Source: Mytilus edulis
Taxonomy: Eukaryota
NCBI RefSeq assembly: GCF_963676685.1
Contig: NC_092347.1
Span: 70,514,935 to 70,578,934 of the forward strand
DNA length: 64,000 bases
Direction of reading: 5' to 3'
The first letter of the stretch is position 1. Every line of letters begins with the position of its first letter. Below are positions 3,405-38,300 of the stretch, one piece after another. Made by a program: the position numbers and the translations under genes. Below the pieces are notes generated by a model. That model did no database searches, was not told where the DNA came from, and saw nothing but the letters and a program-made list of their open reading frames with translations.

Positions 3405-6400
3405 TTACTTGGAATTAGGCGAGTGATATGAGAGCCAAATTCACATTTTTAATGCACCTACCTAACACACGGCTAAATTATATATCACTGGAAAGCTAAG
3501 AATGTGTACTTTCTAAATATCCCGGTCGTCAAAAGAAATTATGGTGCATTTTTTTTTAAATCGAGGTCAAAGGTCATGGGTGCAATTTCTATTCACGGAT
3601 ACTTCCAGTAGAAAAATCGAGTCAAAACAAATACAAAAATGAAACAATTTTATAGGAATGCTGTATTACTCTTGAGAAAATATATTTCTATCATAGTGTT
3701 AATTAATTTTGGTTGATTTTAACGGTAAAGCATGTTACGTAACGTTTTCTCTCGGAGTCTTTGAAAATCAACCATTAAGTCACACAAATGTATCTGTAGT
3801 CGCCCTTGCATTATCTAAATCTTATAATACCTCCATATCATTTGATTGCACGTATTTACAAACATATATCTGCAAATTTGATATAAATAATTCGAAACAA
3901 AATATTTGAAGCAAGAAGAAAATATAACATATGACGTATCTTTAATTGTTTAGAAAGTCCCATGATGAGCTGTACATTAAAATTGAGGAAGCGTATGGTC
4001 TCCTGTTAGTTTGAAAGCCTACCAACCGCTTCAAGATCAGACAACCATAGGGCGGATTTTTTTTTATTATTGTAGTGCAATATGTTGAGTCTGGATCATA
4101 CCGCAATTTCATTTACATCACTAAATCAGATATGACAAGAGTACTAACTAACATTACTAAAATGAATAAAGTGCTACTAGTATATTTATATCAACAAATT
4201 GACAATTTTAATATAAAACATCACAAGGAAAATATGACCACTCATTGTACGTTAAACTGTGTTTGATTTTACTTTAGTCGGCCGCCGTGTATCTTGAGAT
4301 ATCTTATTAATCAAACAACACTTGACAAAGGAGTGTTCTAATTTTAAATTACGCTAGTGATGACATTCGGGCTACTTTGGCACTACGTATTACTTTTTTA
4401 TATCTTGTTTCACCGCTTCAAACAGAGGACAAGGTTATCCTAACATTGAACCTTTTATTTGGCTTTCTTATGTTAAAATCCCGTTAGCGTATAACCTAAA
4501 TGATCGAAACGTCGGACCAATGGGATGTAGGACCATTTAGGTGTCAGAATATTGCGATATCGGAATATTATAGCTTCATTTTAACTTGTAATCTCATCAT
4601 TCTTAGCGGTCAAAATGTCCATACAAAGACAACTTCCTTGGCATGGGCATATACCAGTACAGCAGAGGTTTTGCTCAAAGCGGACACAAGATCTACTATA
4701 TACTGATTGAATTAAAAATTGGAAATGGACACGAGGAATTTGTCAAAGAGACACCAACCCGTTTAAAAGGAGACAACGGCCGACGACCACCAATGGGTCA
4801 TCAATGCAGCAAGAAACTTCCAAACCCGGAGGCGTTCTTCAGCTGGCTCCTAAACAAAAATGTACTAGTTTGAAATGATTATGGACGTCATACTAAGCTT
4901 TCAGTTGAAATATACACAAGAAATTAAAACAAAAATCATACAAAAATAAAAAAGGCCAGGGGCTCCTGACTTGGGACAGGCGTAAAATTGCGGCGGGGTT
5001 AAACATGTTTTTGCAATCTCAACCCTCCCCCTGCGTGAACAGATCAAATCTTGTAGAAAGTTGGAAAACATCATACCGGACCGATATTGCCTTTTAACCA
5101 ACCAAAGTCATGCAGAGAACTTTTATTGTTTCTGTAGTTAGGTTGACATTGTCTTGGATAAAATTTTGACCCCCAGAAGAAAAATAATGCCATGTAGAAT
5201 GTATGCCCCATTTTCAATTTTTCTTATCTGTTGATCAGTCAAACTTGTTTTAATAGTTATCAAAGGTGTGTCCACAAATACGGTGCATTTGTAATGATAA
5301 ATCTAAAAAAAAAAAGAGTTAAAAAGAATAAGACAAAATTATAGAGCTACTGTATACAATATTGGATGTACCTTAGCCTTGTTGAGGCTGTATACATGTA
5401 CATTGTAACTATAAATTGACCATATATTTTTAGTATTTGTTGAAGCTGCTAATATGTTATTTAGTTTTCTCGGCGGCGATCCTCGGCATAAATTAAGTAA
5501 TTAAAGTTGTTAACCAGAATACTTCCTTGTGTACAGGCACGTCATCTTTAATCGTCGAAATGTTAGTAATAGCTCTTTACTTTCTCACTTCAAATTTTGT
5601 AGCTAATATTTAGCGATGCAAGCTCGATGGTATACAGATTTAATAGTAAAATTATCATGAGTTATTTTGTAAATCAGATCATTACGTCCACTTGTATTTT
5701 TGTCCATCTGATGAGTTAAGCCTTTTTCAACTGATTTTTATAGTTCGTTCTTATGTTGTAATGTTATACCACTGTCCCAGGTTAGGGGGAGGGTTTTGAT
5801 CCCGTTAACATGTTAACCCCGCCACATTATTTATGTATGTGCCTGTCCCAAGTCAGGAGCATGTAATTCAGTGGTTGTCGTTTGTTTATGTGTTACACAT
5901 TTGTTTTTCGTTCATTTGTTTTACATAAATAAGGCCGTTAGTTTTCTCGTTTGAATTGTTTTACATTGTCTTATCGGGACCTTTTATAGCTGACTATGCG
6001 GTATGGGCTTTGCTCATTGTTGAAGGCCGTACGGTGACCTATAGTTGTTAATGTTTGTGTCATTTTGGTCTTTTGTGGATAGTTGTCTCATTGGCAATCA
6101 TACCACATCTTCTTTTAATATTTATTGTAGGAGATATATGTATTAACACTCAATACAGCTTGAGTTTGCTACTCAGAGGATACCTTATGAAGTTGTGTAA
6201 CTTGCTTATAGGCTTTATACATTTGCAAAATATACAAACAGACAAATTAGAATGAGTTGTAGATCTACTGCCCTCGTTGATATATGAGAAGAGACTGGTC
6301 GGTAGAATTGGTACATGTAGTACAAAGTCTTTGTACAGACAAAACAGAAGCTGATAGGTTGTACTTACTTTTGAAATATTCATAGCAACTCTTATGATAT

Positions 6401-7460
6401 TTTGTATTTTCAAATGGGATGTTTTCATTTTTTTCATATTCATCAAACAGTCTGTAAACTTCATCCTTTCGTTTTCCCACTGCGGCAATATAACTGTATC
6501 TTCATTTAAGTGTTTAACTACATAGTTTCTATGTAGTAAATACATGACAGACTATGCATCTGTTGTCAATCAATGGATAGTTTTTGCTCTTTAGCATAGG
6601 AAGGGTTTCATTGTGAACTGGACTGTGAAAATTTGACAGGACTCGGAAGATTTTCTACAATTTTCCGATACGATTCCTTATTTAGAAATGGGTGAATTCC
6701 AGAACTCATAAACTATGTTTTACTTTGATTTGATCTTTATTTTCGGACGATTTTATATCTATTTAAGCTCCACTGAAGTTCAAGATAGAAATATAACCGT
6801 TTAAATATGATTTATCGTACTCTGATAGCACTATTAAGTACACGGAAATCGACTAATATATTCAGTAAAAAAACGATAACGAAATAGATAAGGGATTCCG
6901 GAAACTATAGTGATGTTACCCAACATCATAAAATTACAGAAATTCGTGATTTTAAGAAATGTTGAGATAAAGTCTTGATCTTGAATGAAAAAACGATAAC
7001 TGATGAGTGATTTGGTGTGTTCTAAAACGGATCAAGTGCTAACGCATTTAATAGAAAATTTAATTGTAGATCCGAAAAGGTCAGGATTATGAAAATTTTC
7101 GTATAAAATGTCAAATATTTAGAAGGAATGCAAAAGCATGCGGAGTTATAGTTGTAAATATTGTTTTTCATTATTTTAAGAATCTAATTCAATTAATTAT
7201 TCTGTCTAAAAGAAGAGATACGACTAATTTCTTTTGCTTGAAAAACATGTCGTATTTTTACAATTTTCAACTAATTTCTGAAATAAACGTCAATTTTACA
7301 AAAACTGCACCGTACGATTTTGTGACGACCGGGCAAAAATCAAAGTTAAATCAATATTCTTTCATTTAAAAAAGAAATTAGCCGTGTGTTAGGTGGGTGC
7401 ATTAAAGTCCTTAACTAGACGTCTTTTTCAAATATTACACTCGCCTAAATAGACATTGAT
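3405..7460. mobile_element. Candidate about 4-kb element bounded by about 150-bp inverted repeats
   Basis: 3405-3560 is the reverse complement of 7300-7460. Shared core gccgtgtgttaggt[ag]ggtgcatta, gacgaccggg and cactcgcctaa. The interior has only short ORFs plus inserted SINE-like copies. Confidence 0.4.
5690..6115 (+). repeat. SINE/MITE family C, full-length copy of about 420 bp
   Basis: Modules gtc..tgatgagttaagcc / ctgtcccaagtcaggagc / ggttaacatgtt / ctgactatgcggtatgggctttgctcattgttgaaggccgtacggtgacctatagttgttaat / ttgtggatagttgtctcattggcaatcataccacatcttc. Other copies or fragments at 2815-2935, 4900-5050(-), 13540-14130(-, two copies), 15120-15420, 16060-16090, 18600-18920, 20500-20930(-) and 28980-29220(-). 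Confidence 0.7.
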
Positions 7461-8290
7461 GAAAATTTAAGCTGGGAAGATCATGTTGATCGTATATGTA
7501 AAATTATCTCATCTAAAGTATCACTTTTATATAAAATTAAAGTATATTTGCCAATACAAACAAGGCAACTATTTTATAATGCATATATTCTACCATATAT
7601 AGACTATTGTAGTTCAGTTTGGGGAAATTTATTACAAAAAGATTCAGATAGAATCATAAAACTTCAAAAAAGAGTAGCAAGAATTATACTGGAATGCGAT
7701 ATTTCTATTCCATCTAATTTCATGTTTTCTTCTTTAAAATGGCTATCTTTTACCAAAAGAATAAAATACCAACAATCAATTCTAATGTATAAAATTGTAA
7801 ATGGGCTAACACCTGATTACTTAGCAATACTAAATATTGATGATGTGCAACGCCACAACTTACGATCTGTCTCTAATAATGATCTTTTTGTTCCAAGACC
7901 AAATACAAATTTTTATAAAAAATCTTTTCATTATTCTGCAACCAAAGTATGGAATAATTTACCACTCGAAATAAAGAAATGTCCTAATGTGGAATTATTC
8001 AAGAAACATAGTTATAATCATTTTCTTGAAAATTATATGCAAGTCAACTAATTTGTTTTCCTCTAACAAAACTATATCAAATATTGTCATTTATTACCCT
8101 TTGTATATTTCAATGATTGAATTGTGTATATACTAGTAATATATATTGTAAATTAATGTATGAATGTATGAATGTTAACTGTATGCATGTATTTTGTTTG
8201 AGGGCCTCAATGAAAATTAGACTATTTCTAATTGAGTTACCCTCTTTAAATAAAGAATTTATTATTATTATTATTATTATTATAATTTTC
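7440..8290 (+). mobile_element. Non-LTR retrotransposon (LINE, CR1/L2-like) 3' fragment: ORF2 C-terminal region plus (TTA)n tail
   Basis: The frame from about 7445 reads ...IDENLSWEDHVDRICKIISSKVSLLYKIKVYLPIQTRQLFYNAYILPYIDYCSSVWG...LQKRVARIIL..., the conserved post-RT domain of CR1-like ORF2. It ends at 8051 and is followed by the microsatellite (tta)8 at 8261-8285. Confidence 0.7.
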
Positions 8291-9419: not shown

Positions 9420-10059
9420 ACCTCACAGATTTTGTTTTCAATTTTTAACACTGAATTGTTATTTAAGTTGTTTTTAAGCCGTACATAGAAATGTATGAAA
9501 AAGCGTTTTTTTTTTAGTTTTCACTGTGTCGGGTTGTGACACTGATAACTTACATATCAAGACTATAATAGGAAGATGTCGATGATACTTTATTTTCATT
9601 TTTTTTTTAATGACAATTTTTTTTATATTGATGGAAAAATAATTTTAGTAAATTAACCTGTGTTTTTTTTTTTTATCTTATTTAGACTTGTATTGTGTTG
9701 ATTGTAATACTACTACATTTGTTTTGTATGTTTTCTATCCTGATGTTTTATCAAGGGACTGATTTTTATGTCCGAGTATAGATACATGTATCCACTTGAT
9801 ATTTCTTACAAAATGGAGAAAAACAAATATTTGTAGTAGCAATGGAATCAACAAATGCAAAGTACTGTACAATAAACATCTGTCAAGGACGTGAAGTTCA
9901 CGTGACCTGTGCAATTATTGAAGTAGTTAATGCACACCTGACCCGTGCATTATCCAGATTATACCACAGTAAGATCAAAGGAATTTTGCCTCTGTCATGT
10001 GTTAATTTTGTCATATCTCTATTAACTGTAGTAAGTAAATAATATGCGAGATATATCAA

Positions 10060-10960
10060 AGGACCATTCAAACTCACAAGTAGAACTTTTAAAACCGACA
10101 ACGCCATGGCTAAAAAAGAAAAAGACAAACAGCAAACTACAAAACACAAAACACAACATAGAAAACTAAAGACTGAGCAAAACGAACCCAAACAAAAACT
10201 GGGGGGTGATCTCAGGTGCTCCGAATTGGTAAGCAAGTCCTGCTCCACAAGTAAGTGTCATATTTCAATAAAAGACTTATTAAAAAGAGATATAGTTACG
10301 ATACTGTTGTCAAGTCATAAAAGATGGCATACTTGACTTTAATATTGATTCACTTATAGGGCTTTGCATCGGAAATAAACACATTTATTCTAAAACCAGT
10401 TGTTGGCATGATACGGGTTATCATCATTGTTCTTCTCAAATGAAAAATCATGCATGTAATGATGGTATGATGCATATTCATATGGTGAAGACATAATCTT
10501 TCAATCAGTTTGGGGTCTGGAGCTGGCATGTCAGTAACTGCTAGAAGTCCTTAGTGAAATTATGTATCATTGTCAGTTTGTTTAGTTTCTTTTGTTACCT
10601 TGTTACCTATTCTGACATCGGACTCGGACTTCTTGAAACTGAGTTATACTGTGCGTTTGTTTAGAGGGAGGGTTAAGATCTTAAAAAAACATGTTTAACC
10701 CCGCCGCATGTTTGCGCCTGTCCCACGTCTTTGTTAGTCTTGTGTGATTTTGATTTTAGTTTCTTTTATATATTTCGGAGAAAAGAATGGCGTCCATTAC
10801 CACTGAACTAAAACACATTTTTGTTTAGGGGCCAGCTGAAGCACGCCTCCGGGTGCTGGATTTTCTCACTGTATTGAAGACCCATTGGTGGCCATCGGCT
10901 GTTTTCTCCTCTTTGGTAGGGTTATTGTTTCTTTGACATATCCCCCTTTCCCATTGGGTG
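10060..10960. repeat. Composite interspersed repeat: 10060-10260 is the reverse complement of 39200-39420; 10280-10960 is homologous to 33810-34560 (the tail region following the Penelope-like RT)
   Basis: Long co-linear matches, e.g. gatatagttacgatactgttgtcaagtcat..., ggccagctgaag[cg]acgcctccgggtgc and gggagggtt[ag]agatct...catgtttaac[ca]c[cg]ccgcat. Confidence 0.6.
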
Positions 10961-21400: not shown

Positions 21401-22614
21401 GGTGTATGAAAAAAAATATCATAACTGAAAGGGTTATTGAGTTTGGATTGATTGCTTTTGAATTTCTTTCCCTCAATGATATGCTTAGAGAAAGATGAAC
21501 CGAGGAAGATGTTATATTACCTAAATTGAAAATGTTTAATAAACAGAAAATGCGTTTCTCTTTCCAATCTTTTACTCCCCCAACCCCACAAGTTTCATTT
21601 TATCTACTGTATTAATTTTTAAGACACGTCCATCTAAATGAAGTCTGGTTGATCTCCAGCTACCTCCCCCCTCCCCAACCCTGTTTTGAAACAAACTTAA
21701 ACATGATCCCCATTAAATTCTCTATAAAAGATATAGGAATAGACTGATATTTAAAAAGTCGTTATAAATTCCATTGAATTTAAAACTAATCAAAATCAGA
21801 TTCATGTTATTCGGATATTTTTAGATACATTTTTTTTTTGGCAGAAATTACCAAAAATTGTTTTAACTTTTTTTCTTACTTTAAAACACTGATTTAAGAT
21901 TTACATTGTACACAAAATATGATGAAATATGTTATGTCCCAGCTTAGATAAAAAAAAAAAAAAAAAAAAGGAATGAGAGACCTCTCTTTTTTCCTATTTT
22001 GAAACTACGATGTTCGTACAAAGTTCAACTTTGTCTTTATTTTAAAGCAGATGGCAGATTCGGTGTTTGGGGCGAATAGGTCGTTCACCCTTGGATTGGA
22101 CAAAGTATCGTGTTTTAGCATAAAATCGTCAATATTGTTTTAGTCTCGCTACATGTACTCGGTTATATTTTTTTTTTTAATTTTCATGATAGAATAACGC
22201 CCCGTTCCAGGAACCGCCACTAAAGGTAAAAATAGATTTGAACTGTGCAGTATATCTGAGGTAGTTAATGCACACCTTTGCTGTGCATTATCCACATTAT
22301 AGCACAGTAAGAACAAAGAGATTTTACCCATGTCATGTGTTAATGTATGTTTATATGCCCTCACTCTATTTCATTTATATTTACACATTTAAGCATGCCT
22401 CTGTAGAAACTTGGCAAATTCTTCTTCCCACATGATTTTGCTTGACGAGTAGATACAATATGAGCCCAAAAAGAAACCCCACTTTGTTTTTAAATGCTTC
22501 ACGCTACACTGACCTGACTTCAAACGGATTAACTGTTAACATTGATCAATACGTCAATCAAGTCTCATATCTACGGTGGCAGAATGCGGCCATGAAAGAA
22601 AAAAAAATTATGTT

Positions 22615-23160
22615 GTTCCCTCAAGATACTATGTCGTTCCCTCAAGATGCTATGTCGTTCCCACAAGATAGTTATCTCGTTCCCTCAAGATACTATGTCA
22701 TTCCCTCAATATAGTTATCTCGTTCCCTCAAGATACTATGTCGTTCCCTCAAGATAGTTATCTCGTTTTCTCAAGATAATTATCTCGTTCCCTCAAGCTA
22801 CTATGTTGTTCCCTCAAGATGTTATGTTGTTCCCTCAAGATTTTATGTCGTTCCCTCAAGATGATATGTCGTTCCCAAAAGATAGTTATCTCGTTCCCTC
22901 AAGATACTATGTCGTTCCCTCAAGATAGTTATCTCGTTCCCTCAAGATAATTATCTCGTTCCCTCAAGATACTATGTCGTTCCCTCAAGATGTTATGTTG
23001 TTCCCTCAAGATACTATGTCGTTCCCTCAAGATGATATGTCGTTCCCACAAGATAGTTATCTCGTTCCCTCAAGATACTATGTCGTTCCCTCAAGATAGT
23101 TATGTCGTTCCCTCAAGATATCATGTCGTTCCCTCAAGATAGTTATCTCGTTCCCTCAAC
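22615..23160 (+). repeat. Tandem array of about 25 units of 21-22 bp (left arm)
   Basis: Repeating gttccctcaagatactatgtc / gttccctcaagatagttatctc. Confidence 0.85.
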
Positions 23161-24411
23161 ATAGCAATACAATTATATTGATTTATTCTTTATTTCCAAC
23201 TTCGAAACGGTGGAGTAAAGACGTGGAGTTACTTTCAATTCACTTTTTTTTTATCAAATGCGGAACAATGCAAGAACTAGAAATTAAGAGCACCGACACG
23301 AAACACGGAAAATAAATAAGGGGAAATACGAAGCACGCACATCGAACCAAACACGAGAAAACGAGAAAGAAAACACCAAATCACGAAAACACGTAAAATG
23401 AAAAGGCCGAAAACGTTGCACGAAAATAACCCTTTACCACCCTCTTAGAAAATAAAATTAAAAATGAGCTACAAAATGTTTTATCATCTCTTATTCCTGG
23501 ATTTCTAATACATTAACCTTACTGTTTGTGTTGTACATGTGCATATGTATGTAATCAGTATCTTCCTTAGATTTAATTTTTAAATGTTAAAAGGGTGGAA
23601 AATAATTCCTTTTCTGTGTATCCATGGCAACATTCCGCATTTATTTACCATAAAATATTGCAAAAAGGGGGTAAACATGCATGTCACATATCCCCCCAAA
23701 ATTTGGATCAAACTAGAATTTCAATGCCTTTGAGTGATACCTTTTTAGACACTGTTTTCATAAATCTTCCTAATGATCAAATAAAAATTGGATGTCTTTC
23801 GCCTAATTTTTTCGTAAAATCTAATCACAAAGTTCGTGCGACAAAAAGTTGGAAAAAAACATTACAAAAATTGCCGGACCAATGTATGGTATGGACAAAC
23901 AAATACGGACTGTCATACAGAAAACAGCCTATATTACATACATCATATGATCTTGATGTTCATATAAACCCAATACGAAGGCTATTTTAATACTCAGCTA
24001 TCCAAAAATGAATTTTATTGCACACTAGCTCTTATATTTGAAAAATCCTCAGGGGCCAAAATGCGAAACTACACATCCAACTGTGGAGTGCTACCTTTAC
24101 TGGGACTCCGGGATCGGGTGTTTTTAAGCTCAGGATTTCGGGATTGACCCTTTCGGATCCGGGAATTCTTTTTTTCGGATTACGGAACGTCGGGATTTAC
24201 TTTATTTAAATTCGTGATTTCGAGATTTCGTGTTTTTAAGCCCGGGATTTCTGGATCAGGACCCCTCCTATCCCCTCTCATTTATTCTCTTTAAATACAG
24301 AATTATTATATCATTATTATTATTATGCAAATATTCTACTTTTGGGATCTGGCCACGTCTACAGTTCCGCTTCGAAGGGCGAAATGAATAATATATCAAT
24401 ACAATTTTAAA

Positions 24412-24772
24412 ATCTTGAGGGAACGAGATAATTATCTTGAGGGAACAACATAGTATCTTGAGGGAACGACATATCATCTTGAGGGAACAACATAACATCT
24501 TGAGGGAACGACATAGTATCTTGAGGGAACGAGATAACTATCTTGATGGAACAACATAACATCTTGAGGGAACGACATAGCATCTTGAGGGAACGAGATA
24601 ACTATCTTGAGGGAACAACATTACATCTTGAGGGAACGACATAGAGTCTTGAGGGAACGAGATAACTATCTTGAGGGAACGACATAGTATCTTGAGGGAA
24701 CGAGATAACTATCTTGTGGGAACGACATAGCATCTTGAGGGAACGACATAGTATCTTGAGGGAACAACATAT
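24412..24772 (-). repeat. Same tandem array in inverted orientation (right arm)
   Basis: Repeating atcttgagggaacgacatagt / atcttgagggaacgagataactatcttgagggaac. Confidence 0.85.
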
Positions 24773-26399
24773 TTTTTTTTTCTTTCATGGCCGCATTCTG
24801 CCACCGTACATATCTGTTGCAATAATCTTCATCAAAAGATTTTAAGAATTGTTGATGACAAAATAAATTGATTTACTGTAAAGTTCAAAACTTCAAACAA
24901 TGACGATTATGACTGCGTAGTACGGTAGATCTGGTGGGATTTTTTTCTTCAGAAAAACATCATAAGGGGGGCTAAAAAAAATGGGCCAACTATTTGATTT
25001 TCACGGTAAGGGGCAGGAATATTAAAAAATAATTATTACTTTGACCTGGTAAGAACTAAAAAAAAAATGACTTGGCATGAAGATGAGACAAAAATAAATT
25101 GAACTATCATGTTAAAATTTATAAGTTATAGTTACTCTGATTTTTATTTTTGAAAAAGTTTCCAAGTGATAGATGCTAATTGTTCATTCAGTGCTTCTGT
25201 TTTTTAAAGGTCATTTTCTGCAAGGGCTGTTTGTAGTGGAAGTATTTTTTTTTCAAAGCTGCAAGTTATGTATTTCCAAAACAGGTGCTACTTTCTGTAT
25301 TATCTGCTATCATATTTTCGACATATTTGTTGTGTGCTTTTGTTATATTGAACGACAAATTTATGTGACGTATATAATTTTTCTGACGTCAGACACTCAA
25401 ATCAATCCATGTGTTCGTAGATAGTAGATGTTTTTGTGTCCTGTTAAGTTGTTATACGATGATGACTGATGTACCCATATTTTGACTATTTTATTAATTG
25501 TGACTGTTTATTTAACGCATCATGTAAATGTAGCGGAATTTGATGAGACTGTTATTAAAGTGAGACTGAGGGTTAGCGCTATAGAACCAGGTTTAATCCA
25601 CCATTTTCTACATTTGAAAATGCCTGTACCAAGTCAGGAATATGACAGTTCTTGTCCATTCGTTTTTGATGCGTTTTGTTTTTTGATTTTGCCATGCGAT
25701 TATGGACTTTTCAAATTGATTTTCCTCTGAGTTCAGTATTTTTGTGATTTTACTTTTTGTTATATCACTCTCTATTGATTTCGCCAGTTCTCATCATATT
25801 CCCCCCTGATATTCCACCAAAAACCGCTTCTTTCCGTTTCCGTTTCCGTTCCGCATTCCGTTTCCGCCGTTTAGCAACACCCCTTTCCCATTCTCAATTT
25901 GTAACAAAAAAATCAGCACTCAGCAACGGATGTTAAGTCCTCAATGCTCTTAAACATAGTAAATTATTTGGTCTGCTTAATTTTTTGGCTTCGAGAATCA
26001 CTGACGAGTCTTTTGTGGACAAAACGCTCGTCTGGCTTTCAAAATTATAAGACTGATGTCTTTGTTGACGTTGCAGGTGCGCTTGACTCCAATCTTAATT
26101 AAATAAGATAGTCAAGTTTTCAGACCGAAGGTTGGCGATTCTCTCCGACACTCCGTCTTCCTCCACAAATAAAACTGACGACCATGAAATAGCACAACTG
26201 TGCTGAAAGAAGCATTAAACACCAATCAATCAATCATAGAAATGATAATACTATTATTTTTTTATTCATAATTTTTATAAGAAGAAGAAGCTTCATTTCT
26301 TTATTGAATATTTCATTAAAGAGACTTCGTAGGTTCTGGTTTCTAAGACAAATAAAAAATTCTTTCAATCATCATTCACAGTTTGTCTCAGGTTGAACT

Positions 26400-26590
26400 G
26401 AGGCGTATTTCCTTATACCCACACCCAGATAACACTTCCAATATCTGGTGTGGTGTTGAGAGAGCTGTAGCTATTGAAAATCAAGCACTGTTCAGTTTTA
26501 AATACAAAGGCTGTACAATCGGTTCCGTGATGTAGACATAAGTAAGCACAGTAAATCTTTGTTTTGGAATACTCGGTTAGATAAGGAAGA
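26400..26590 (-). CDS. Possible exon encoding a PAN/apple-like Cys pattern
   Basis: Minus-strand frame ...KIYCAYLCLHHGTDCTAFVFKTEQCLIFNSYSSLNTTPDIGSVIWVW, with C..C....C.aF.f....C.L spacing. No splice sites defined. Confidence 0.25.
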
Positions 26591-26904
26591 GTAGTTGGTA
26601 AGGAATCTGTCTTGTCAATATGAAAATACCTCGAACCTGTTAAATATTAAAAATACCATATTTAGGTGGATAATGTAGTAAATATTTCTATCGGAAAACA
26701 ACTGTAGTTCATACAAAATATAAACTCTTCACAAATGTTTTTTTCTTTCTATGTATTCCCCTTCTTTATTAAACTTATAGTGAACATAAAAATAATTAAC
26801 CATCTAAAAATATTCTAAATATATTCTATAGTGACTATTAATTATATAAACCAATAATTTAACACTTTCAAAAGGAAAAGATGCAAAATAAAACATATAA
26901 CAAC

Positions 26905-27200
26905 AAGAATGTGTCCCCAGTACACGAATGCCCCACTCGCACTATCATTTTCTATGTTCAGTGGACCGTGAAATTGGGGTAAAATCTCTAATTTAGCATT
27001 AAAATTCAAAAGATCATATCATAGGAAACATGTGTACTAAGTTTGAAGTCGATTGGACTTCAACTTCATCAAAAACTACCTTGATCAAAAACTTTAACCT
27101 GAAGCAAGACAGACGGACGGACGACCGACCGAATGAACGGACGCACAGACCAGAAAACATAATGCCCCTCTACTATCGTAGGTTGGGCATAAAAATATCC
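26905..27200 (+). repeat. MITE family A, copy 2
   Basis: gtgtccccagtacacgaatgccccactcgcactatcattttctatgttcagtggaccgtgaaa...(gacg/gacc)n...cataatgcccctctactatcgtaggttgggcat. Confidence 0.7.
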
Positions 27201-27886
27201 ACAATCTTGTTGACTCCTTGTTTTGTCATCTCTTTATTTTTCCTCCCGTGGAATGTTAAGGTTGTATGTTATTTTACTTACTGTTTGTACCACCAACATG
27301 CCATTGGCCAGTATTTCCCGTCGGTGTGCTTACTCCTGCTGTTAAACCTTCAACTATATCTTGGGATATGGGATAATGGTTTGCCGTTGGATCTATTGTA
27401 ATTATATATTTTATCATATGTGATGTATGTCTTATAATCGGATAGATATGATGATGATAAAGGGTTAATTTAACGAAGTAGTAGTCTAACTAAATGGTTA
27501 AAACAATTTTTATTTATCCCAACACACGGCCCCCACACTCACCTATATTCTTGACTCCACAAAATTATCATATTACAAAGTTTATCTAGTGTAGATTCTC
27601 GTTTTTCACATTTATGGTAAAATGAGGAAACCTCATACATATTCGTACAAAAAAAGCACCCACACTCAAACATGAGAATATCAGTTTCATTGTTAATTCA
27701 GCTTTTAATATCCATATGTAAACATAGAATATTCTCGCTTCAAAAAAATCAAAATTGAAACACTCGATAAGGTCGACGAAGGTTTTATCTACACACAAAA
27801 AAATCATATTTGTGACAATAAGTATAGCTATACTATATTTATATTTTTTCTTTAAATTTCTTTTTTGAAACCATCATTTTGATATA

Positions 27887-28115
27887 TCAAGAAAAAACAT
27901 ACATACATTGACAAAGAAATAGACTGGTTTCCGTCGCTGCTCTATTATCCCAATCAAAGCCTTTAGTGTAAACAAGTTTAACACGTTGGTTTATAGCATA
28001 TGATGTAGGTTCTCCATAAATCCATGCAGCTTCCGTTAGATCTGTTCCATCATTCCATTTGAATGAAATTCCATCTGCTGACGTCAGTCCAATCCAGAAA
28101 TCGTTATTAACATCC
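27887..28115 (-). CDS. C-type lectin gene L1, terminal exon encoding the C-terminal half of the lectin domain
   Basis: Acceptor tgttacag|G. Frame gives (M)DVNNDFWIGLTSADGISFKWNDGTDLTEAAWIYGEPTSYAINQRVKLVYTKGFDWDNRAATETSLFLCQCMYVFS* with WIGL...W.DG....W..GEP...W.D..C motifs. The phase (2+1) matches the upstream exon. Confidence 0.6.
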
Positions 28116-28850
28116 CTGTAACATATATAGAAATCGTTATTATTGTCCCTGTAACATATTTAGAAATCGTTATTATTGTCCCTGTAACATTTTTTGAAAT
28201 CGTTATTATTGTTCCTGTAATATATTTAGAAATTGTGAGTATTGTCCCTGTAACATGTTTAGAAATCGTGATTATTGTCCCTGCAACATATTTATAAATC
28301 GTTATTATTGTCCCTTTAACATTTTTAGAAATCGTTATTATTGTCCCTGCAACATATTTAGAAATCGTTATTATTGTCCCTGTAACATACTTAGAAATCG
28401 TTATTATTGTCCCTGTAACATACTTAGAAATCATTAGTAATGTCCCTGTCAAATATTTAGAAATCGTTATTATTGTCCCTGCAACATATTTAGAAATCGT
28501 TAGTATTGTCCCCTGTAACATATTTAAAAATCGTTGCTTTTGTCCCTGCAACATATTTAGAAATTTTTATTATTGTCCCTGTAACATATTTACAAAATCG
28601 TTACTATTGTCCTTGTAACATATTCAGAATCGTTATTATTGTCCCTGTAACATATTTAGAAATCGTTAAAATTGTCCTTGTAACATATTTAGAAAACGTT
28701 ATTATTTTCCCTGTAACATATTCAGAAATCGTTATTATTGTCCCTGTAAAATATTTAGAAATCGTTATTATTGTTCCTGAAACATGTTTAGAAATCATTA
28801 TTATTGTTCCTGTAACATATTTTCAAAGACCATTTCAACTGGCAAGAACT
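28116..28850 (-). repeat. 33-bp satellite of about 22 units inside the L1 intron; the unit resembles the 3' splice site plus exon start
   Basis: Minus-strand unit GGACAATAATAACGATTTCTAAATATGTTACAG repeated. The true junction reads tgttacag|GGATGTTAATAACGATTTCTGG. Confidence 0.8.
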
Positions 28851-29585
28851 AAAAAGATAATCGTTATATAAAAAATGACCAGATTTGGTAGTCTTCTCGG
28901 AGTGCGAATTGAGTAATTTTAAATGATTTCCGTTCAATTCCATTGTCACATCAGTAAATATCAGAAAGAAGAAGTAGTATAATTGTCAATGAGACAACTC
29001 TCCACAAGAGTCCAAATGACATAGAAATTGGTAGCCCATAACGCACCTATAGTCAGATATAAATTTAAAAGGCCACAAAATCACAAATGTAAAACAACTC
29101 AAATGGGAAAAATGGCCTGATTTATGTTAAAAAAATGAACGAAAAACAAATATTTTTGTATGTAACACCACAACTACTGAATTACAGGTTCCTGACTTGG
29201 GAGCAATTACACAAGGATTTAAGAATAGCAAGTGGAATTAGTTAGTCCAGTTACCCAGTTACTTATATATATACTGAACAGTAGAATTAGTGATTATTTC
29301 TGCACTGAGGCAACGAAGCAGCATATTGTCTCGATTATCATAGTGTAGGGAGTGTATGCGTACAATTTAAGTATTTCCAAAGGATTTCCCCTTAATAAGG
29401 AGTGTTTACTTACAATTAGAGTGTAGAAATGGGAGAGAAATAATTATTCTAATTCCCTTTGAGATATAATAAATTTTAGAAGAACAGTTACGACATGTTT
29501 AAAAAAAAAACCCAGATTAGTTTCTGTTACATTATCAAGTGTATCTAAAAAGGTAGATTCTGATTTCAGTATTTCTATTACTTAC

Positions 29586-29724
29586 ATTCCCTGGTAGACA
29601 ATAGCATTCTTGGCAACTGTAAACATTTCATTTGTGGGTAGCATGGCCAGCTCTAAAGCATTCATTTCACAATCCTGTTTAGCAGTTTGATAATCAACGG
29701 AGTAACTCATCGGCATATAATTAT
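29586..29724 (-). CDS. C-type lectin gene L1, exon encoding the N-terminal half of the lectin domain
   Basis: (D)NYMPMSYSVDYQTAKQDCEMNALELAMLPTNEMFTVAKNAIVYQG, with a WxEAxxxCxxxGAxLA-type pattern. Acceptor ...ctgaatgtag and donor GGAAT|GTAAGT. Confidence 0.55.
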
Positions 29725-30731
29725 CTACATTCAGAAATAAGAGACTTTTGTAAGAAACTCAATGAAACAACATACAGACAATACATTATACTTTGTAAAG
29801 CAGTAGGACAAGACTCTGGATTAATTAGCACACACGTTGACGGATTCCTTTCAAGAATTCAAAGTATATAACACCTTGGTGTGCGTACTGTTTGGTTTAG
29901 GCAACATGTAACAACTATGCATTTTTATGTACATGTATTCAAATTAAAAAAAAAATGTTCCTAGAAGGATATAAACAAATCGAATATTATATTAAAATTT
30001 CCCGGCATACATACATGTATAAGCTTAATAATTTTTTGACTTTGTGGAAAATTGAGAATATAAAAATATAACAGGCTATATGTATTTACAAACCGTTGAG
30101 TCTTATGATTATTTACTTTCCAATATTGACAATTCTAAAACATTCAAATATTAAAGTTGTAAAACGTGCGTTATATTTGAATAAAGAAGAACAAAACATT
30201 ACAGTTTTTGTCCATTCGTTTTTGATGTGTTTTGTTATTTTGATTTTGCCATGTGAATATGGACTTTCCAATTCGATTTTTCTCTAAGTTCAGTATTTTT
30301 GTGATTTTACTTTTTACACGTAATTAATTTCATACTATTTTACTTCTGATTCGAATGTATGAGAATTAAATTTCCCCATAAGTTTTTGGAGTATTCGAAC
30401 AGATCAATTTGAAATACCATTTGATTTGTATGGGGGGCTAGGATGAGAAATGTTGTCCTGCATTTTTTTTTAGTTGTTATCTCTGTTCTGCCTTTTTATT
30501 TTTCACTCTTTTCGGTCCTGCATTTTTTTCTTAGTTTATCCTGACTTTTTTACATAAATTGTCATCCTGCCTTTTTTTTTTGCAAATTTGCTCCTCCTGC
30601 CTTTTTAAACTTAAAATTGCCATTTTCAAATTTCATTCTAGCCACCCCCGCCCCCATAAAATAAAATGGTATCTGTCTTAACAAAAAAGCTCAAAATTCT
30701 ACAACATCATGTATAATGACTGAAGTTCATC

Positions 30732-30963
30732 TTAAACCTGTAACAACTTACGTTGACATAACGCATGAGGCAGTCTGGTAGATTTAGTTTTTGACACCCA
30801 CGTACCATCGACCTTGTCCACCGCTATAGAGACGTTTGCAGCCGGATTGGGAACAGTGTGACCTGGTTTCCAGTCTGTATAAACCACACTTTCTAACATG
30901 TTTTGCCAGGTTAGATATGCTCCATTGCCATACAAACCTATCCATATGTCACCAGTCAGAGTT
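30732..30963 (-). CDS. C-type lectin gene L2, terminal exon (C-terminal half)
   Basis: gtgttag|AACTCTGAC... gives (E)TLTGDIWIGLYGNGAYLTWQNMLESVVYTDWKPGHTVPNPAANVSIAVDKVDGTWVSKTKSTRLPHALCQRKLLQV*. Confidence 0.6.
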
Positions 30964-31705
30964 CTAACACAAACAAACATAGTTTACTTATACATTGCAG
31001 GTTAATCTAGTTTCAGTGCCACCACAAACACAATATGCTTAAAACTTTCACAATGATTATTTCAGGAAATACAGTTAACTGTTTCATATCTCATGTGGCA
31101 CAGAGAAACTTTTCATTGTCTGCTGCAAACTCTATCTTTAAATAAACTTATATAATATACAAAAGCTAATTTTGTGTCTTATATGCGTTTTTTTAATTAA
31201 TTTCTCGTGACGCACCACTTCAAATACTATCAATCCTTTGATAAATAAAACAAAAATAAAATAAAAATGCAAATTCAACTGAAGAGCGTCTAGGAATTTT
31301 TAATCAATAAATATAATATCTTAGCTGTATTCCGATTAACTTTTCAAAAATGTTGGCCCTTAATGCTCTTCGTACTTTATTTGAACTTTTGAGTTATTAT
31401 TCTAGCAGGCACTGCATGATGAATCTTTTTCAACAAAATGCGCGTCTTTAGTACAAAATTATAAGCCAGGGTCCGAAGCTACCAAAAGACATGTCATAAG
31501 ATGTATCTTAGGACATATCTAATGATTCTCTTATGACTATCCTAGGACATATATCAGACCTCGCCTCGAAGCTGTCCTAGGATGATCTTAGCAAAGATAT
31601 TCTAAAACTGCTGCAAGTACTTTAAATTTTCAAATATTAACATAGATTTATGGAAAACAATCATGTGAATGTAGTGTTGACTGATCTTAACTTGAAAATA
31701 CATAC

Positions 31706-31850
31706 TCATAAGTTATGAAATCTTTTAAAAACGTAACGGCAACTGGGTTAGAAAACACAGCTAATTGTCCACCTAAGTTATAACATTCCTGTGAGGCTTC
31801 GTAATAGTTGTAATCTCCATGGATAAATGTCACGTCTGGATGAGGAGGTG
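31706..31850 (-). CDS. C-type lectin gene L2, N-terminal-half exon
   Basis: ttttgcag|CACCTCC... gives APPHPDVTFIHGDYNYYEASQECYNLGGQLAVFSNPVAVTFLKDFITY(E). Donor GA|GTATGT. Length 145 nt, phase 1 in and 2 out. Confidence 0.55.
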
Positions 31851-32165
31851 CTGCAAAACAACAGTATACAAGTAGAATATAGATAGGGTGACTAGATGAG
31901 GGAATCCTTTAATCGACAATATGCTTTAAAATTCTCAAAGAAAATAGTCGAGCGGATCTGGTTATCAAAATGATGATTAATAGTTTTTATCAACTTGTAA
32001 TGGAATTTAAATTTGAATGACATATAGTGTAACAAAAGACTGTATCCACTTTCAAATATAAATAAAAATTTAACACAAAACTGAACACTAAAACATGATT
32101 GTGAAAGAAAAGAGTTACATGAAAAAATATCTAGAAAATAGAATTTGGAAACATGTACGTTTCTA

Positions 32166-32385
32166 CTAAACATATATACAGTGATACACACCAAAACATA
32201 GAGGTCGATTAAGTTCCGTGTAGGCGCCCGTATTCCACAATACATAAGCATAAGCCTGGCTAAACTTTCCAAATTCCAATAGTGGTTCGAGGGCTGCCCA
32301 TGAATCATAGTCCAATGTTTTGCCATCATCCCAATGACAAAGTTGGTTTGTACAAGATACAGACATCCATACATCATCGAAAATG
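32166..32385 (-). CDS. C-type lectin gene L3, terminal exon (divergent C-terminal half)
   Basis: tttttttaacag|G gives (E)GIFDDVWMSVSCTNQLCHWDDGKTLDYDSWAALEPLLEFGKFSQAYAYVLWNTGAYTELNRPLCFGVYHCIYV*. The phase is compatible with the 35185-35326 exon. The lectin-domain consensus is partly degenerate. Confidence 0.4.
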
Positions 32386-32559
32386 CCCCTGTTAAAAAAA
32401 TACATATATGTATCAAAATTTGTTTTTGTCCCGGCCGATAAAGCTGCTAATAATATTATTATTGTTTGACGTAAATTTTACATTGAGGTTCTGAAAAAGG
32501 AAATCACCAATTCACCAACATTCCAACTGACTCCATTTTCAGAAAACGAAATCTGTAAC

Positions 32560-34560
32560 AAACATAAACTTTTAGCCACCGCTTTACAAGCAGAGCCAAA
32601 TACAATGAAAGTCTTAACTATGTATTGGCTTCCGAAGCTACACAAAACCCCTTACAAATATAGATTTATTTCGTCTTCAAGCCATTGTTCAACTACTAAA
32701 TTGTCTATTCTTCTTACCAGCACACTTGGTACAATTAAAAACCTGATAATAAATTGTTCAAATAAGGCCTTCGAAAATAGTGGAATAAATTACTTTTGGA
32801 GTGTCAAGAACTCGTTGGAAGTACTTGATAAATTGCATGCTTATATTGGTGATTTTGAATCAGTTCAAAGTTTTGATTTTTCTACCCTGTATACCACATT
32901 GCCTCATATTCTCATTAAGAAAAAATTCACACACCTAATTAAATGGGCATTCAAAAAAATCAGAATGTGAATATATATGTTCAAACTCTTTTAGGTCATT
33001 TCTTAGTAGCAATAAACAAAAAAAACTATGTTAATTGGACATGCTTTGATACTATATATGCCCTTGAATTTTTACTAGATAACATTTTTGTTCGCTTTGG
33101 GGATTCCGTATATCGTCAGATTATCGGAATTCCAATGGGGACTAACTGTGCACCACTTATTGCGGACCTGTTTTTGTATTGTTATGAGTTACAATTTATG
33201 ACAAAAATAAGCAAAGACCCATCGAAACAACATCTGATAAACAAATTTAATAATACTTTTAGATATTTGGATGATATTTTGGCTCTCAATAATGACGACT
33301 TCAGTATGTATATTAATGAAATTTATCCTGTTGAACTTACTTTAAATAAAGCTAATACTAACAATGACCACTGCCCTTTTCTCGATCTTGATATCTATAT
33401 CACTAATGGAAAGCTGAATACTAAAATTTATGATAAAAGGGATGATTTTTCATTTCCTATCGTTAATTATCCGTTTTTAGATGGTGACGTTCCCTTGTCA
33501 CCATCTTACGGTGTTTATATATCTCAACTTGTACGATTCGCTCGTGTATGTAACAATGTTTTAGATTTTAACGAGAGAAATTTATGTATTACTGAAAAAT
33601 TATTACACCAGGGTTTTCGATATCACAAACTAGTCAAAACATTTACTAAATTTTATCATCGGTATAAATACATCATTCGTAATTATAGCTCAACATGCAG
33701 ACTTCTAATACGTTCAGGTATTTCACATCCAATTTTTTTATGGAAATATTCTTTATAAAGCACAAAGGTGTCAGTATTCACCTCAGAAACTTACAAAACC
33801 TTTGAATAGACTTATTAAGAAGGGATATAATTACGATACTGTTGTCAAGTCATTAAAGATTGCATATTTTGGCGTTAATATTGACTCACTGATAAGGTCT
33901 TTGCATCGGAACTAAACACATTTATTCTAAAAACAGTTGTTGGCATGACACGGGTTATGTTCTTCTCATATATGTTATGATGGTATGATACTAAACCCCT
34001 AACGGGAAGGATTGTGCCTGATGTTCATATGATGAAATCATAATCTTTCAGTCAGTTTAATTGAAGTCTGGAGCTGGCATGTCAGTTAACTGCTAGTAGT
34101 CTGTTGTTATTTATGTATTATTGTCATTTTGTTTATTTTCTTTGGTTACATCTTCTGACATCAGACTCGGACTTCTCTTGAACTGAATTTTAATGTGCGT
34201 ATTGTTATGCGTTTACTTTTCTACATTTGTTAGAGGTATAGGGGGAGGGTTGAGATCTCACAAACATGTTTAACACGCCGCATTTATGCGCCTGTCCCAA
34301 GTCAGGAGCCTCTGGCCTTTGTTAGTCTTGTATTATTTTAATTTTAGTTTCTTGTGTACAATTTGGAAATTAGTATGGCGTTCATTATCACTGGACTAGT
34401 ATATATTTGTTTAGGGGCCAGCTGAAGGACGCCTCCGGGTGCGGGAATTTCTCGCTACATTGAAGACCTGTTGGTGACCCTCTGCTGTTGTTTTTTTATT
34501 TGGTCGGGTTGTTGTCTCTTTGACACATTTCCCATTTCCATTCTCAATTTTATTATCAAT
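32560..34560 (+). mobile_element. Penelope-like retroelement (RT ORF with one frameshift, plus an about 700-bp tail), sitting in the L3 intron
   Basis: ORFs 32605-32970 and 32943-33758: MYWLPKLHK (PLE-type PKxHK motif), FDFSTLYTTLPH, GIPMGTNCAPLIADLFL and FRYLDDIL (YxDD). The tail 33810-34560 recurs at 10280-10960. Confidence 0.55.
32605..33758 (+). CDS. Reverse transcriptase (Penelope-like), frameshifted around 32950
   Basis: RT motifs as above; two overlapping frames. Confidence 0.55.
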
Positions 34561-35184
34561 ATAACTATACCAAAGATATGCTTACAGATTAAAACTTTTT
34601 TTATACATTTATGTTTTATTATGTTTAAATTGTTCAGCGAATATTGTCGATACTTAGAATGCAATAACTGCGACTATTTTGTATTTTACCAGTTGTAGGT
34701 GTTATCAGTGGCGGATTCCTGCCTTGATAGTGAGTAGACGACTGGGCGTTCACCTCTATTCTAGACGGCTAATGCTTGTAAATATCTTTTTAGGATTTAA
34801 ATGATTTTAGCACATAATAGTTCAATAAAATGGAGACTCACTCCGCATGGCACTATTTTTTTTTAATACTTTTGACCAAAGAGCAGCCGGACAATGAGTA
34901 TTTAGTTCGAATTAGGGATACGAATTTGACAGCTAATGTCCCAAGAAATGTGTACATTATATTTTCAAAATTAATTACAAATCATGTAAACTCGTACAAA
35001 TGGAAAATGGAAAAATCGTTGTTATACGTTATCACAAAAACACAAATCGCTGGGTTAAATCGGTCTAGTTTTAGCTGAATGTTAACAACTTTTAAAAAAG
35101 TAGTGATATTTAATAGAAAGGTTGAACATTTTGCAACCAGAGATTTTCCTTTCCCCTTTGCTAGCTACTAGACTATATACTTAC

Positions 35185-35326
35185 TCAGACGTGATGAATT
35201 GTGCTGCCATATTGTTCATTTGATCGTTGTTGATTTTTACCAGTTTCATTCCAATGTTTATACAGTAATCTAATGAATCATAATAATTCAAAGTGGATGG
35301 TCCTAGATAGAAATATGGACTGAAAC
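35185..35326 (-). CDS. C-type lectin gene L3, N-terminal-half exon
   Basis: ttttctgcag|GTTTCAG... gives (G)FSPYFYLGPSTLNYYDSLDYCINIGMKLVKINNDQMNNMAAQFITS(E). Donor CTGA|GTAAGT. Length 142 nt. Confidence 0.55.
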
Positions 35327-38300
35327 CTGCAGAAAAATACAATAATTGAAAATTCAGTCGTAGTACATTTTTCTTTCTTTGATTTTGTGTGAGTTTTTTT
35401 GGGTACTTTTATTTTCAGGCCAGGTGAAGCACGCCTCCGGGTGCGGGAGTTTCTCGCTGCATTTAAGACTCATTGGTGGCCTTCGGCTATTGTCTGCTCT
35501 TTGGTTGTTAGTTCTTTGTCACTTTCCCCATTTCTATTCTCAATTTTATGTAAAGTTATGTATGAATGAAAGGAGATGTGTGATACAAGTCAATGAGATA
35601 GGAACCTAACGAAACAACAATAAACAAAGTTTGAAGTGGTCCATACTTAGGACAAGTACATGAGCCTCTCTCTGTCTTTTTACATTTTTTAAAAATATTT
35701 CCACCCTTCTGTTATATTGTTGTATGTACAAGGAAGTGTGACGTGTTTGCAACGATAGCGTCAAACAGAGCATTATAGAGCAAGAACAATCTCAATCATA
35801 ATTGAAATATTTTTTTACACTTTATAAATTTCGTGCGCCTGATGCGCATTTTTTGGTTTATCTTCATTAGGAACGCGCAAATCTAAAAATATATAGGGAG
35901 TTGGTTTCATTGGCAATTTGCAGTGACTTTATTTTTTGGGAGAGCTAATTGGAACAGGGGTACCTATTGTCCAGTCCATTTACTGTCATTTACGAATCTT
36001 TCACTTTATCATAAATAAAAGGTAATAAATTTGTGGCAAGATAAATGGTAAACTTAAACTGTAAAATTGATTCAGTGATTCAAAAAAATATATGTGTATG
36101 TGCGCGTTCGCTATATTCGTAGACTTAGTTTGGGTTTTAAAATATTGATTTGACAGGAAACAAATTATAAAAAAGTCGTCCTAGTATGCAAATCATAACT
36201 ACGGACGTCATTTGGTGTGAAAATTTGGAAAAATGATATCATAAGAACTAATAAACGAACCCTGTTACAGTTATTTACACAATTTTCCACTAAATCAGTG
36301 TATCGTATTTCAAAATGTCATACCTTTTAATAAGTAAAGTCGGTATATTCGTCGATACCGGTACGTTACATATGCGTGTATTAGTATTACATTTTCGCGA
36401 GAAATATCATTACTCTTCCAAGTATTGTACGTTTATGAACATGATGAAAGGGCCATAATTAGACCTTCTATAGCTTATAATAAAGGGAAGAATTCGTGTA
36501 AGACGAAACTGAGAACTGGTGACCAATCTACCACCCGTTATCACGGTCTCGCACTACTGGTATATATATACAGCCACCTGATGAATACTCTTGGCATGGA
36601 CGAAACCTGTTTTAAATTACTAATATATTTGAAATCCGCACATTTAATTTAATGATATTTCTCGCGCTGAAATCCGCACATTCAAATGTAATGATATTTC
36701 TCGCGCAAATGCAACATTTTTCCCAGAAAGGTAAAAACCATGGTCCAAACGACACCAGAAAATTGAATGGATATTCGTGAAGTGAAATATATAATAGGAC
36801 TTTTAGAAAGATAGTTGTATTTAATAGCATGGCAAATATACAGGAAGATGTATAGGATAAAGTCGCGCAAATATATATATATTTTTGTTCGCGCGAACAT
36901 AATGTTCGTTATTCACAAAATTCACCCTGCGTCTATACAGGTTTACATACCTCGTATTATGACCACTTGTAAGAAGAGAATCCAAGACAGCTTCAAAGGT
37001 ATCATTGTAAAAAAAGATATATTAAATTGAATAAACACTTGCAAACACTAAAATAAATGGCTTTCAATTTGTTTAAGGAGAACTGCGCCCTAGGTTTACA
37101 TGAAATGATATCCAACACATAATCATCCAGGCTTTAAATTATTCTATATACCATGAAGCAAAAGATGTGTTATTAAATTGAATTCAAATTTATAGGTCAA
37201 TTAAATAAATATATATTATATTTGTCTGGAGTTATTTGTTAGTAAATTAACTCTGGGAAGTCAAAACCTGAATACATAAACAAATACATGTAGATAACAA
37301 TAGACACAAAAACAAATTTGAATTTAAAGCCGGTATGTAAATAATAGTATTGGTGTAAATAGTAAAAAAAGTACGTATGAACGCGTGGTCTTTGTTTCAC
37401 TTTACATCGTTACAGGTTCAAATATAGTCCTCGTGTACTTGGGCCTGTTTTCTATTCAATGCCCTTTTTTATATATTGATCTACATTGTATGTTTGTCCC
37501 AAATGGAAGAAATATAACAATTGGTAAATCAATTGTACCATTCAGTGACCAAAAAATATGGACTATTCGGCCGGTATCTATTTCACTGACGTCTTCACTC
37601 GCAGTCAACAGTATTTGAAAAGAAGTTTATTAACTCGTAGATTTTGTATATATTCGTAATGACTCACTTTTAGTATTGTTTTTGTTTTGTATTTTTACAA
37701 ATTGTCAATCTCATCTGGTAATGCATATACCAATAGATTCTTAATACGCACCGAGAGAGATACACTTACCCCTTAAGTTGAGGCTGTGACATTATTTTTA
37801 AAATTTTAAAGCAGAGTGCTTTAAAGAGTATAAAACACTGTAGTTGAATTTGTTTCTATAATATTATTTTTATGCCGCTGAATTCAAATTCAGTACTGTT
37901 TAGACATTTCGCTTGCAGTCAATCAATCCAGTTCTGTTCTATATCATTTCAGACCTTTGTTGAATTTGAATAAAAGAGATAAACAAATATTAGTCAGAAC
38001 AGTCTGAAATAGACAGAGCATATTTTATTGACTGTAATCGATGCGTCTAAATAGCACTAAATTTGCGCGAACGCTTAACTTTAACCAATGAAAGTTAGTT
38101 AAAACTCTGAATTCATACTACATTGTATAGGGGATAAGTCTGAAAATGTATTTACAAACTGAAAATGATTGATTAATTTAGAGATCAGTTTCTTTTAAGA
38201 TATGTTCAGATTAAACGTATCGTTTATTTTCGCGAAATAAAGTTGACCTAACCTTATGGTACATTAAGAAAAAGGTCCCAACCTGGGGCCAACGGATATA

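Follow-up and report, generated by a model that had tools for sequence, protein, structure and literature searches.

A 33-bp minisatellite in a Mytilus C-type lectin gene that very probably arose from the intron 6/exon 7 junction it adjoins

Introduction

In the window analysed here, a 64-kb stretch of Mytilus edulis DNA, an intron of a C-type lectin gene contains a 33-bp tandem repeat that runs directly into a coding exon. This raises the question of where the array came from, and whether its many copies of a 3' splice site take part in the splicing of the gene. A sequence-only reading of the window had proposed that the satellite consists of tandem copies of the 3' splice site together with the start of the exon. 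Based on the gene structure, the register of the repeat and the orthologous loci of other mussels, we consider it very likely that the array is a boundary minisatellite of the 'mirage' type, which was born from the intron 6/exon 7 junction and is mostly a passenger in the gene.

Structure of the host lectin gene

The host gene encodes XP_071171077.1, annotated as 'lymphocyte antigen 75-like [Mytilus edulis]', a protein of 477 amino acids. Nine coding exons were located by tblastn of this protein, from 37005 to 26416 on the minus strand (26416..37005), and they encode a signal peptide, three C-type lectin domains (CTLDs) and a Cys-rich C-terminal part. The protein matched Pfam Lectin_C (PF00059) in three stretches with 70.7 bits against a gathering cut-off of 22.6, and the CTLD formed by exons 6 and 7 alone reached 28.9 bits with the same cut-off. 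When we spliced five exons by hand at consensus sites (32388-32192, 31850-31706, 30963-30752, 29724-29586 and 28115-27907), the product was an open frame of 300 amino acids that contained no stop and was 100% identical to XP_071171077.1 over the full tested length.

The exon that adjoins the array is exon 7 (27907..28115, minus strand), which was placed by splicing by hand and by tblastn and encodes the second half of the third CTLD (DVNNDFWIGL...LFLCQ). Exon 6 (29586..29724, minus strand) encodes the first half of this domain and ends with ...CAGGGAAT/gtaagt (GGAAT/gtaagt, the slash marking the junction), and the Met codon before DVNNDF consists of AT from exon 6 and the first G of exon 7. 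Intron 6 (28116..29585, minus strand) is 1470 nt long and in phase 2, and it comprises 748 nt of unique sequence followed by a 722-nt array abutting the acceptor. An equivalent intron is present in all three CTLDs at the identical position, in phase 2 and six codons ahead of the WIGL Trp; TRF reported no array in the other two in the window. The assignment of the acceptor and exon at 28115 in the earlier reading is borne out by the complete identity of the spliced product to the RefSeq protein and by the intron position and phase common to the three CTLDs. The same reading took this exon to be the terminal lectin exon, which is not the case: it is exon 7 of 9, with a 5' splice site CAAT/gtatgt at 27907/27906 and two further coding exons downstream.

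Two features of the gene lie apart from the array. First, in the second and third CTLDs (30752-30963 and 27907-28115, minus strand), the usual inner cysteine pair is absent; the only cysteines retained in these two checked domains are the one that follows the first helix and the C-terminal one of ...LCQ. The third CTLD has EPT at the position of the sugar-binding tripeptide. Judged from these residues, the second and third CTLDs may be non-canonical lectin domains. Second, intron 2 (32605-33758, plus strand) contains two adjoining ORFs of 121 and 271 amino acids that resemble reverse transcriptase (...FRYLDDILAL...). These may represent a decayed or unusual retroelement; the reverse-transcriptase-like ORFs of the introns and upstream region (32943-33758, 32605-32970 and 7449-8048) gave no Pfam match at E <= 0.01.

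Structure and register of the array

TRF reported the 33-bp array at 28096-28822 on the minus strand with 22.0 copies, 86% matches and zero indels, and the boundary that it drew falls 20 nt within exon 7. The in-register print on the coding (minus) strand explains this boundary, as each repeat unit is composed of 13 nt of intron tail and 20 nt of exon head. The array (28096..28822, 22 copies including the authentic junction copy) begins at its 5' edge with the ancestral intron tail AAATATGTTACAG (28810..28822, minus strand), of which the AG at 28811-28810 is the first decoy acceptor. The next 21 full units (28116..28809, minus strand; consensus GGACAATAATAACGATTTCTAAATATGTTACAG) each consist of an exon-head copy GGACAATAATAACGATTTCT followed by an intron-tail copy AAATATGTTACAG; eighteen of them are 33 nt long, one is 32 nt and two are 34 nt, and the last decoy unit reads GGACAATAATAACGATTTCTATATATGTTACAG (28116..28148, minus strand). 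The 3'-most copy is the authentic junction itself, with the acceptor AG at 28117-28116 and the exon from 28115. The exon head on the minus strand is GGATGTTAATAACGATTTCT followed by GG, that is GGATGTTAATAACGATTTCT/GGATTGGACTG..., so that the first 20 nt of exon 7 (28115-28096) are an exon-head copy.

These data refine several points of the sequence-only reading. It had described about 22 decoy copies upstream of the authentic one; the tandem copies are there, but the count is 21 decoys plus the authentic junction, and 19 of the 21 decoys retain the AG. It had also described the unit as the same sequence as the real acceptor and the first 20 nt of the exon. This structure was confirmed, but the sequences are not identical, since the head of exon 7 matches the unit head at 17/20 positions and the whole M. 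edulis junction copy matches the array consensus at 29/33. Finally, the array ends at 28822 and not at 28850 as previously given.

The borders of the array are exact: they coincide with the ancestral intron tail at one edge and with the rest of the exon at the opposite edge, and the intron tail at 28810-28822 adjoins unique intron that is orthologous to that of M. californianus. A search for the 33-mer with up to 3 mismatches gave 15 occurrences in the 64-kb window, all of them within the array, while 0.00 are expected from shuffles, and an 18-mer from the unit head gave just one chance-level match outside the array in the window. By both searches, the 33-bp unit is absent elsewhere in the 64-kb window.

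Since a minus-strand ORF of 156 amino acids (GTIITISKYVT...) runs through the array at 28084-28554, we considered whether the array is coding, either because the true exon lies inside it or because it encodes a repeat peptide. The frame of this ORF differs from the lectin frame and stops 32 nt into the exon, and further upstream it is broken by the 32- and 34-nt units. The 156-residue product has no Pfam family above threshold, and it is absent from the retrieved annotated proteins and from M. californianus. In addition, one open frame of three is expected by chance in a unit of 11 codons. A coding array is therefore hardly credible.

Orthologous loci and the origin of the array

We compared the junction with orthologues from M. 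galloprovincialis, M. trossulus and a second M. edulis assembly, which fell into one protein cluster, and from M. californianus, which fell into a separate cluster. The arrays were segmented by stepwise edit distance from the exon backwards, and the degenerate array of M. trossulus was read by eye. The M. coruscus locus that was fetched contains the second CTLD only, and neither a pattern search nor tblastn found an exon 6/7 homologue in it.

The orthologous intron of M. californianus ends with ...gaaaatatgttacag/GGACAATAATAAAGACTTCTGG (in a longer print ...cttgccagttttaaatgatctttgaaaatatgttacag/GGACAATAATAAAGACTTCTGGATTGG), a single copy of the junction with the exon head GGACAATAATAAAGACTTCT and no 33-bp array. 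The unique intron upstream of the array is 82% identical between M. edulis and M. californianus, and the two loci are therefore orthologous. The single junction of M. californianus matches the array consensus at 31/33 positions, which is closer than the 29/33 of the M. edulis junction copy. In M. trossulus, we read about 13 degenerate units, mostly ending with CAT and not CAG, before the exon head GGACAATAATAACGATTTTT. Longer arrays are found in M. galloprovincialis, with 39 full units and the exon head GAATGTTAATAAC in OZ263148.1, and 36 units and the exon head GGATGTTAATAAC in each of two UYJE contigs. The second M. edulis assembly (GCA_905397895.1) has 37 units and the exon head GGATGTTTTAAATAAC, and the present window has 21 units and the exon head GGATGTTAATAAC.

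The single-copy junction of M. californianus together with this series of array lengths indicates that amplification of the junction took place in situ within the M. edulis species complex, and that the length of the array is polymorphic. The simplest history that we can read from these sequences would be that, in an ancestor of the complex, a 33-bp piece of the junction (13 nt of intron tail and 20 nt of exon head) was duplicated in tandem in place, after M. californianus had split off and before M. trossulus did. M. californianus is the sole informative outgroup here, and an older array may have secondarily collapsed in this species. The proposal that the satellite is an amplified 3' splice site plus exon start thus gains its main support from the 31/33 match of the single M. 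californianus junction to the consensus, and the comparison of array length across orthologues and individuals that had been recommended as a check turned out positive (one junction with no array, then about 13, 21 and 36-39 units).

The codons preserved in the array point in the same direction. The consensus head GGACAATAATAAC encodes DNNN, which is the same as in the exon of M. trossulus (DNNNDF) and near that of M. californianus (DNNKDF). In M. edulis and M. galloprovincialis, the exon head is altered at three adjacent bases (CAA to TGT) and encodes DVNN (GGATGTTAATAAC) or NVNN. Judged from these codons, the start of the ancestral exon (DNNN) is preserved better in the array than in the real exon (DVNN).

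We also weighed the opposite direction, in which a dispersed satellite or a transposon-borne repeat landed in the intron and donated the acceptor and the first codons to the exon. Transposon-associated tandem repeats are described as abundant in bivalve genomes (PMC7492417, PMC3879986), and a foldback-like element with 21-bp subrepeats lies within 3 kb of the gene. On the other hand, this junction sequence is single-copy in M. californianus, all three CTLDs agree in the position and phase of the intron, the array is flanked by orthologous intron and exon and by no additional sequence of transposon origin, and the unit is confined to the array within the window. Such a donor is highly improbable. 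The class of dispersed arrays associated with Helentrons or MITEs was considered separately and rejected, as the unit occurs only in this array in the 64-kb window and the flanks are orthologous.

Assembly errors are known to arise at tandem repeats (PMC6868369), and a copy number from a single assembly may be imprecise. Nevertheless, five independent contigs or assemblies, which represent three species, carry an array at this position, and the diagnostic unit variants occur in a shared order. The chance that the array is a collapsed or inflated repeat created by assembly is practically negligible.

The start of exon 7 shows some variation of its own. In the second M. edulis allele (GCA_905397895.1, fetched locus L004, about 10560-10585), there is a 3-nt insertion in the exon head (GGATGTTTTAAATAAC, DVLNNDF), and the acceptor of this allele is AAAG instead of ACAG. 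Within M. edulis, the start of the exon 7 coding sequence is thus variable in its first codons.

Turnover of the array between alleles

When we aligned the arrays unit by unit, units 1-12 and 17-21 of the window allele were collinear with the first and the last units of the longer alleles, and many of them were identical. The length difference of about 16 units sits centrally, where the longer alleles show repeated multi-unit blocks. The units diverge from the consensus by 5-7% on average. Stable edges combined with a core that turns over are the standard minisatellite pattern, and this points to unequal exchange or replication slippage. Replication slippage seeded at the junction, which had been offered as one possible origin, stands alongside unequal exchange as the best reading of the pattern, the process itself being deduced from its products. 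We suggest that the array would have expanded through one of these routes to its present polymorphic length of about 13 to 39 units, and the three species and five alleles show both growth and shrinkage of the array.

The unique portion of intron 6 also varies in length, being 748, 1185-1191 or 2321 nt depending on the allele. The differences of about 0.4-1.1 kb (fetched locus L005 compared with L006, and L004 compared with the window) suggest indel polymorphism, perhaps of transposons, that is independent of the array.

Decoy acceptors and the choice of the splice site

We then asked whether the decoy junctions could serve as acceptors. In the other M. edulis and M. galloprovincialis alleles, the acceptor positions ending with AG numbered 34/38, 37/40 and 35/37 (the authentic site counted), while most units of M. 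trossulus have CAT in place of an AG-ending acceptor. The authentic window from -20 to +3 is gatttctatatatgttacag/GGA; most decoys differ from it by 1-4 nt, and two decoys differ by 1 base. Any method scoring this window alone would rate the decoys about equal to the authentic site. As the decoy windows are nearly identical to the authentic one, site choice must depend on context outside the window.

The consequences of using a decoy would differ between the last unit and the others. When the decoys are read in the lectin frame, a stop appears within 7-18 codons in 20 of the 21, usually as DNNNDF*. In the last decoy (AG at 28150-28149, at -33 nt), the in-frame TAA is changed to TAT and no stop is encountered; the frame from stop to stop spans 28159-27890. 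If this AG were used, it would add 33 nt, that is the 11 in-frame residues DNNNDFYICYR. The TAT variant is present in the last decoy of all five M. edulis and M. galloprovincialis alleles.

The retrieved annotated models of three species, with one RefSeq model per species, use the last AG alone, and the reading frame is intact across the junction in four species. Neither the form with 11 additional amino acids nor a truncated form was found among the retrieved proteins or those of the searched database. Among 121 units, which are not independent of each other, per-position variability showed that the AG is not conserved beyond the other positions of the unit. A TAAC resembling a branch site occurs in 15 of the 21 units and is not conserved above background, again among non-independent units. 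The annotated models and the database proteins weakly suggest that the decoys are mostly silent.

In a different reading, the array would serve as a functional bank of alternative 3' splice sites, with its length tuning the balance of outcomes. The AG at -33 would then produce an isoform of the lectin that is longer by 11 residues immediately ahead of the WIGL strand, and the distal AGs would give stop-containing transcripts and lower expression. The AG kept in 19/21 decoys, within a -20 to +3 context nearly equal to the authentic one, would also be compatible with some use of the decoys, as would the stop-free last decoy, whose TAT is shared by all five alleles; the latter is the only feature that hints at such a bank. 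Comparable arrays also provide a precedent, since human IFI6 and CBS use one or two of their pseudo-donors (PMC1557585). Against this reading, the insertion and the truncated form are in no annotated isoform or database protein, and the AG is no better conserved than its neighbours. The units of M. trossulus mostly end with CAT, and the last unit of this species is 32 nt long and would shift the frame. Moreover, the mirages of amphioxus give no aberrant mRNAs (PMC3087553, PMC3902484). We regard a bank of working acceptors as unlikely. The fuller claim that the decoys are a used, tunable acceptor set in an immune-type lectin gene, in which array length (21-39 between individuals) sets isoform ratio or expression, is also unlikely; if it were true, a splicing-based layer would be added to the known individual variability of mussel immune genes.

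Returning to the mirage-type passenger that we prefer, we suggest the following scheme for the splicing of this intron. Only the 3'-most copy continues into the body of the exon, and hence only its AG, which is the annotated one, would yield the lectin frame. The upstream copies would be near-identical pseudo-acceptors, 20 of the 21 leading to an early stop and one to 11 additional residues in frame. The authentic AG is probably chosen by exon definition, because it adjoins the real exon body and lies 209 nt from the downstream donor. The 20 nt upstream of the 13-nt intron tail are former exon, so the branch site and the pyrimidine tract of the real acceptor must presumably lie in the array; a candidate branch site is TAATAAC, which lies some 22 nt before the AG. 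The array itself would most likely be a neutral or slightly deleterious passenger.

Comparison with known boundary-spanning minisatellites

In amphioxus, 'mirage' minisatellites span splice boundaries in the Adh3, troponin C, globin and PGBD5 genes; they duplicate splice sites without disturbing normal splicing, vary between haplotypes, and have edge copies that escape homogenisation (PMC3087553, PMC3902484). The globin paper regards mirages as a possibly general phenomenon in cephalochordates. [quoted passage not shown] The mussel array shows every structural feature of mirages that we tested: a boundary-spanning unit, contiguity with the authentic junction, many units that retain the AG, and copy number that varies between haplotypes with conserved, unhomogenised edge copies. 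In both systems, the authentic site is the one used by the annotated or observed mRNA, which in the mussel means the gene models. The mussel array is accordingly a clean instance of an element type already described, not a new type.

There are also differences between these systems. First, the host of the mussel array is a mollusc, while that of the mirages is a cephalochordate. Second, the unit is 33 bp in the mussel compared with 150-160 bp in the amphioxus globin genes, although it is within the range of Adh3 (10-72 bp). Third, the mussel alleles carry 21-39 copies compared with 3-6 in BflGb6, the sole amphioxus case for which counts are given. Finally, the mussel case has a single-copy outgroup that dates and orients the event, unlike the amphioxus mirages.

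Human minisatellites whose first unit spans an exon-intron boundary are known in F7 intron 7 (a 37-bp VNTR), IFI6 (6-16), CBS intron 13, LMNB2 and PDGFA, and of the sites in F7 intron 7, only the one next to the exon is used (PMC1557585). In the human cases as in the mussel, a polymorphic intronic VNTR reiterates the authentic splice site as many pseudo-sites of identical or near-identical sequence, and the exon-adjacent site is normally used (in the mussel, according to the gene models). However, the human arrays duplicate the donor, and the exon-adjacent site is met first, whereas the mussel array duplicates the acceptor, with the used site at the end of the series. Any scanning rule that proceeds from 5' to 3' would therefore have to skip 21 look-alikes.

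The order of the sites gives the mussel locus an experimental interest. Tandem duplications of 3' splice sites have been engineered to study site choice, including the choice of the first AG downstream of the branch point. In those constructs as in the mussel, equivalent modules of branch site, pyrimidine tract and AG compete in cis for one donor. The mussel locus differs from them in being a natural allele series of 13-39 near-identical acceptor modules, 33 nt apart and upstream of the used site. As a mirror image of the F7 intron 7 model of donor choice, it could serve to test rules of acceptor selection, particularly exon definition as opposed to first-AG scanning.

The sequence-only reading had noted no earlier description of such an array for lectin genes. 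Our literature searches found no case of a boundary-spanning minisatellite in a mollusc or in a lectin gene, but the phenomenon itself is known (PMC3087553, PMC3902484, PMC1557585). The literature that we found reports 'mirages' from lancelets only, and the mussel case extends their range to molluscs. It is also an unusually well-resolved birth of a minisatellite from unique sequence, with the progenitor present in an outgroup and the ancestral codons kept in the array. In practice, gene prediction and read mapping at this junction can be led astray by arrays of this kind.

Other repeats near the junction

The foldback-like element mentioned above is about 2.25 kb long (window 22567-24813) and lies about 1.6 kb beyond the coding 3' end of the lectin gene. 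Its inverted arms (22567-23163 and 24412-24813) contain 21-bp tandem subrepeats ATCTTGAGGGAACGACATAGT, and the outer 189 nt are 97% complementary.

In the unique intron about 45-60 nt upstream of the junction, tataacgattatc resembles the exon-head core aataacgatttct, both in M. edulis (window about 28860-28875) and in M. californianus (fetched locus L001, about 10575-10590). This resemblance may be due to chance or may be a trace of an older duplication; its spacing does not fit the 33-bp period.

The orthologue of M. trossulus (fetched locus L002) contains intronic arrays of 45 bp x 9.3 and 27-29 bp x 3-6 (6006-6424 and 9697-10042), which TRF did not report in the M. edulis window or the M. 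galloprovincialis locus. The lectin gene of M. californianus has a young minisatellite of its own (L001, 9651-9964), in which a 35-bp unit is repeated 9 times with 98% identity. Its end lies about 22 nt before the exon 6 acceptor, so that it is near a junction but does not span it; its counterpart in M. edulis is a single copy (window about 29800-29750, minus strand). Local amplification beside splice sites seems to recur in this lectin gene.
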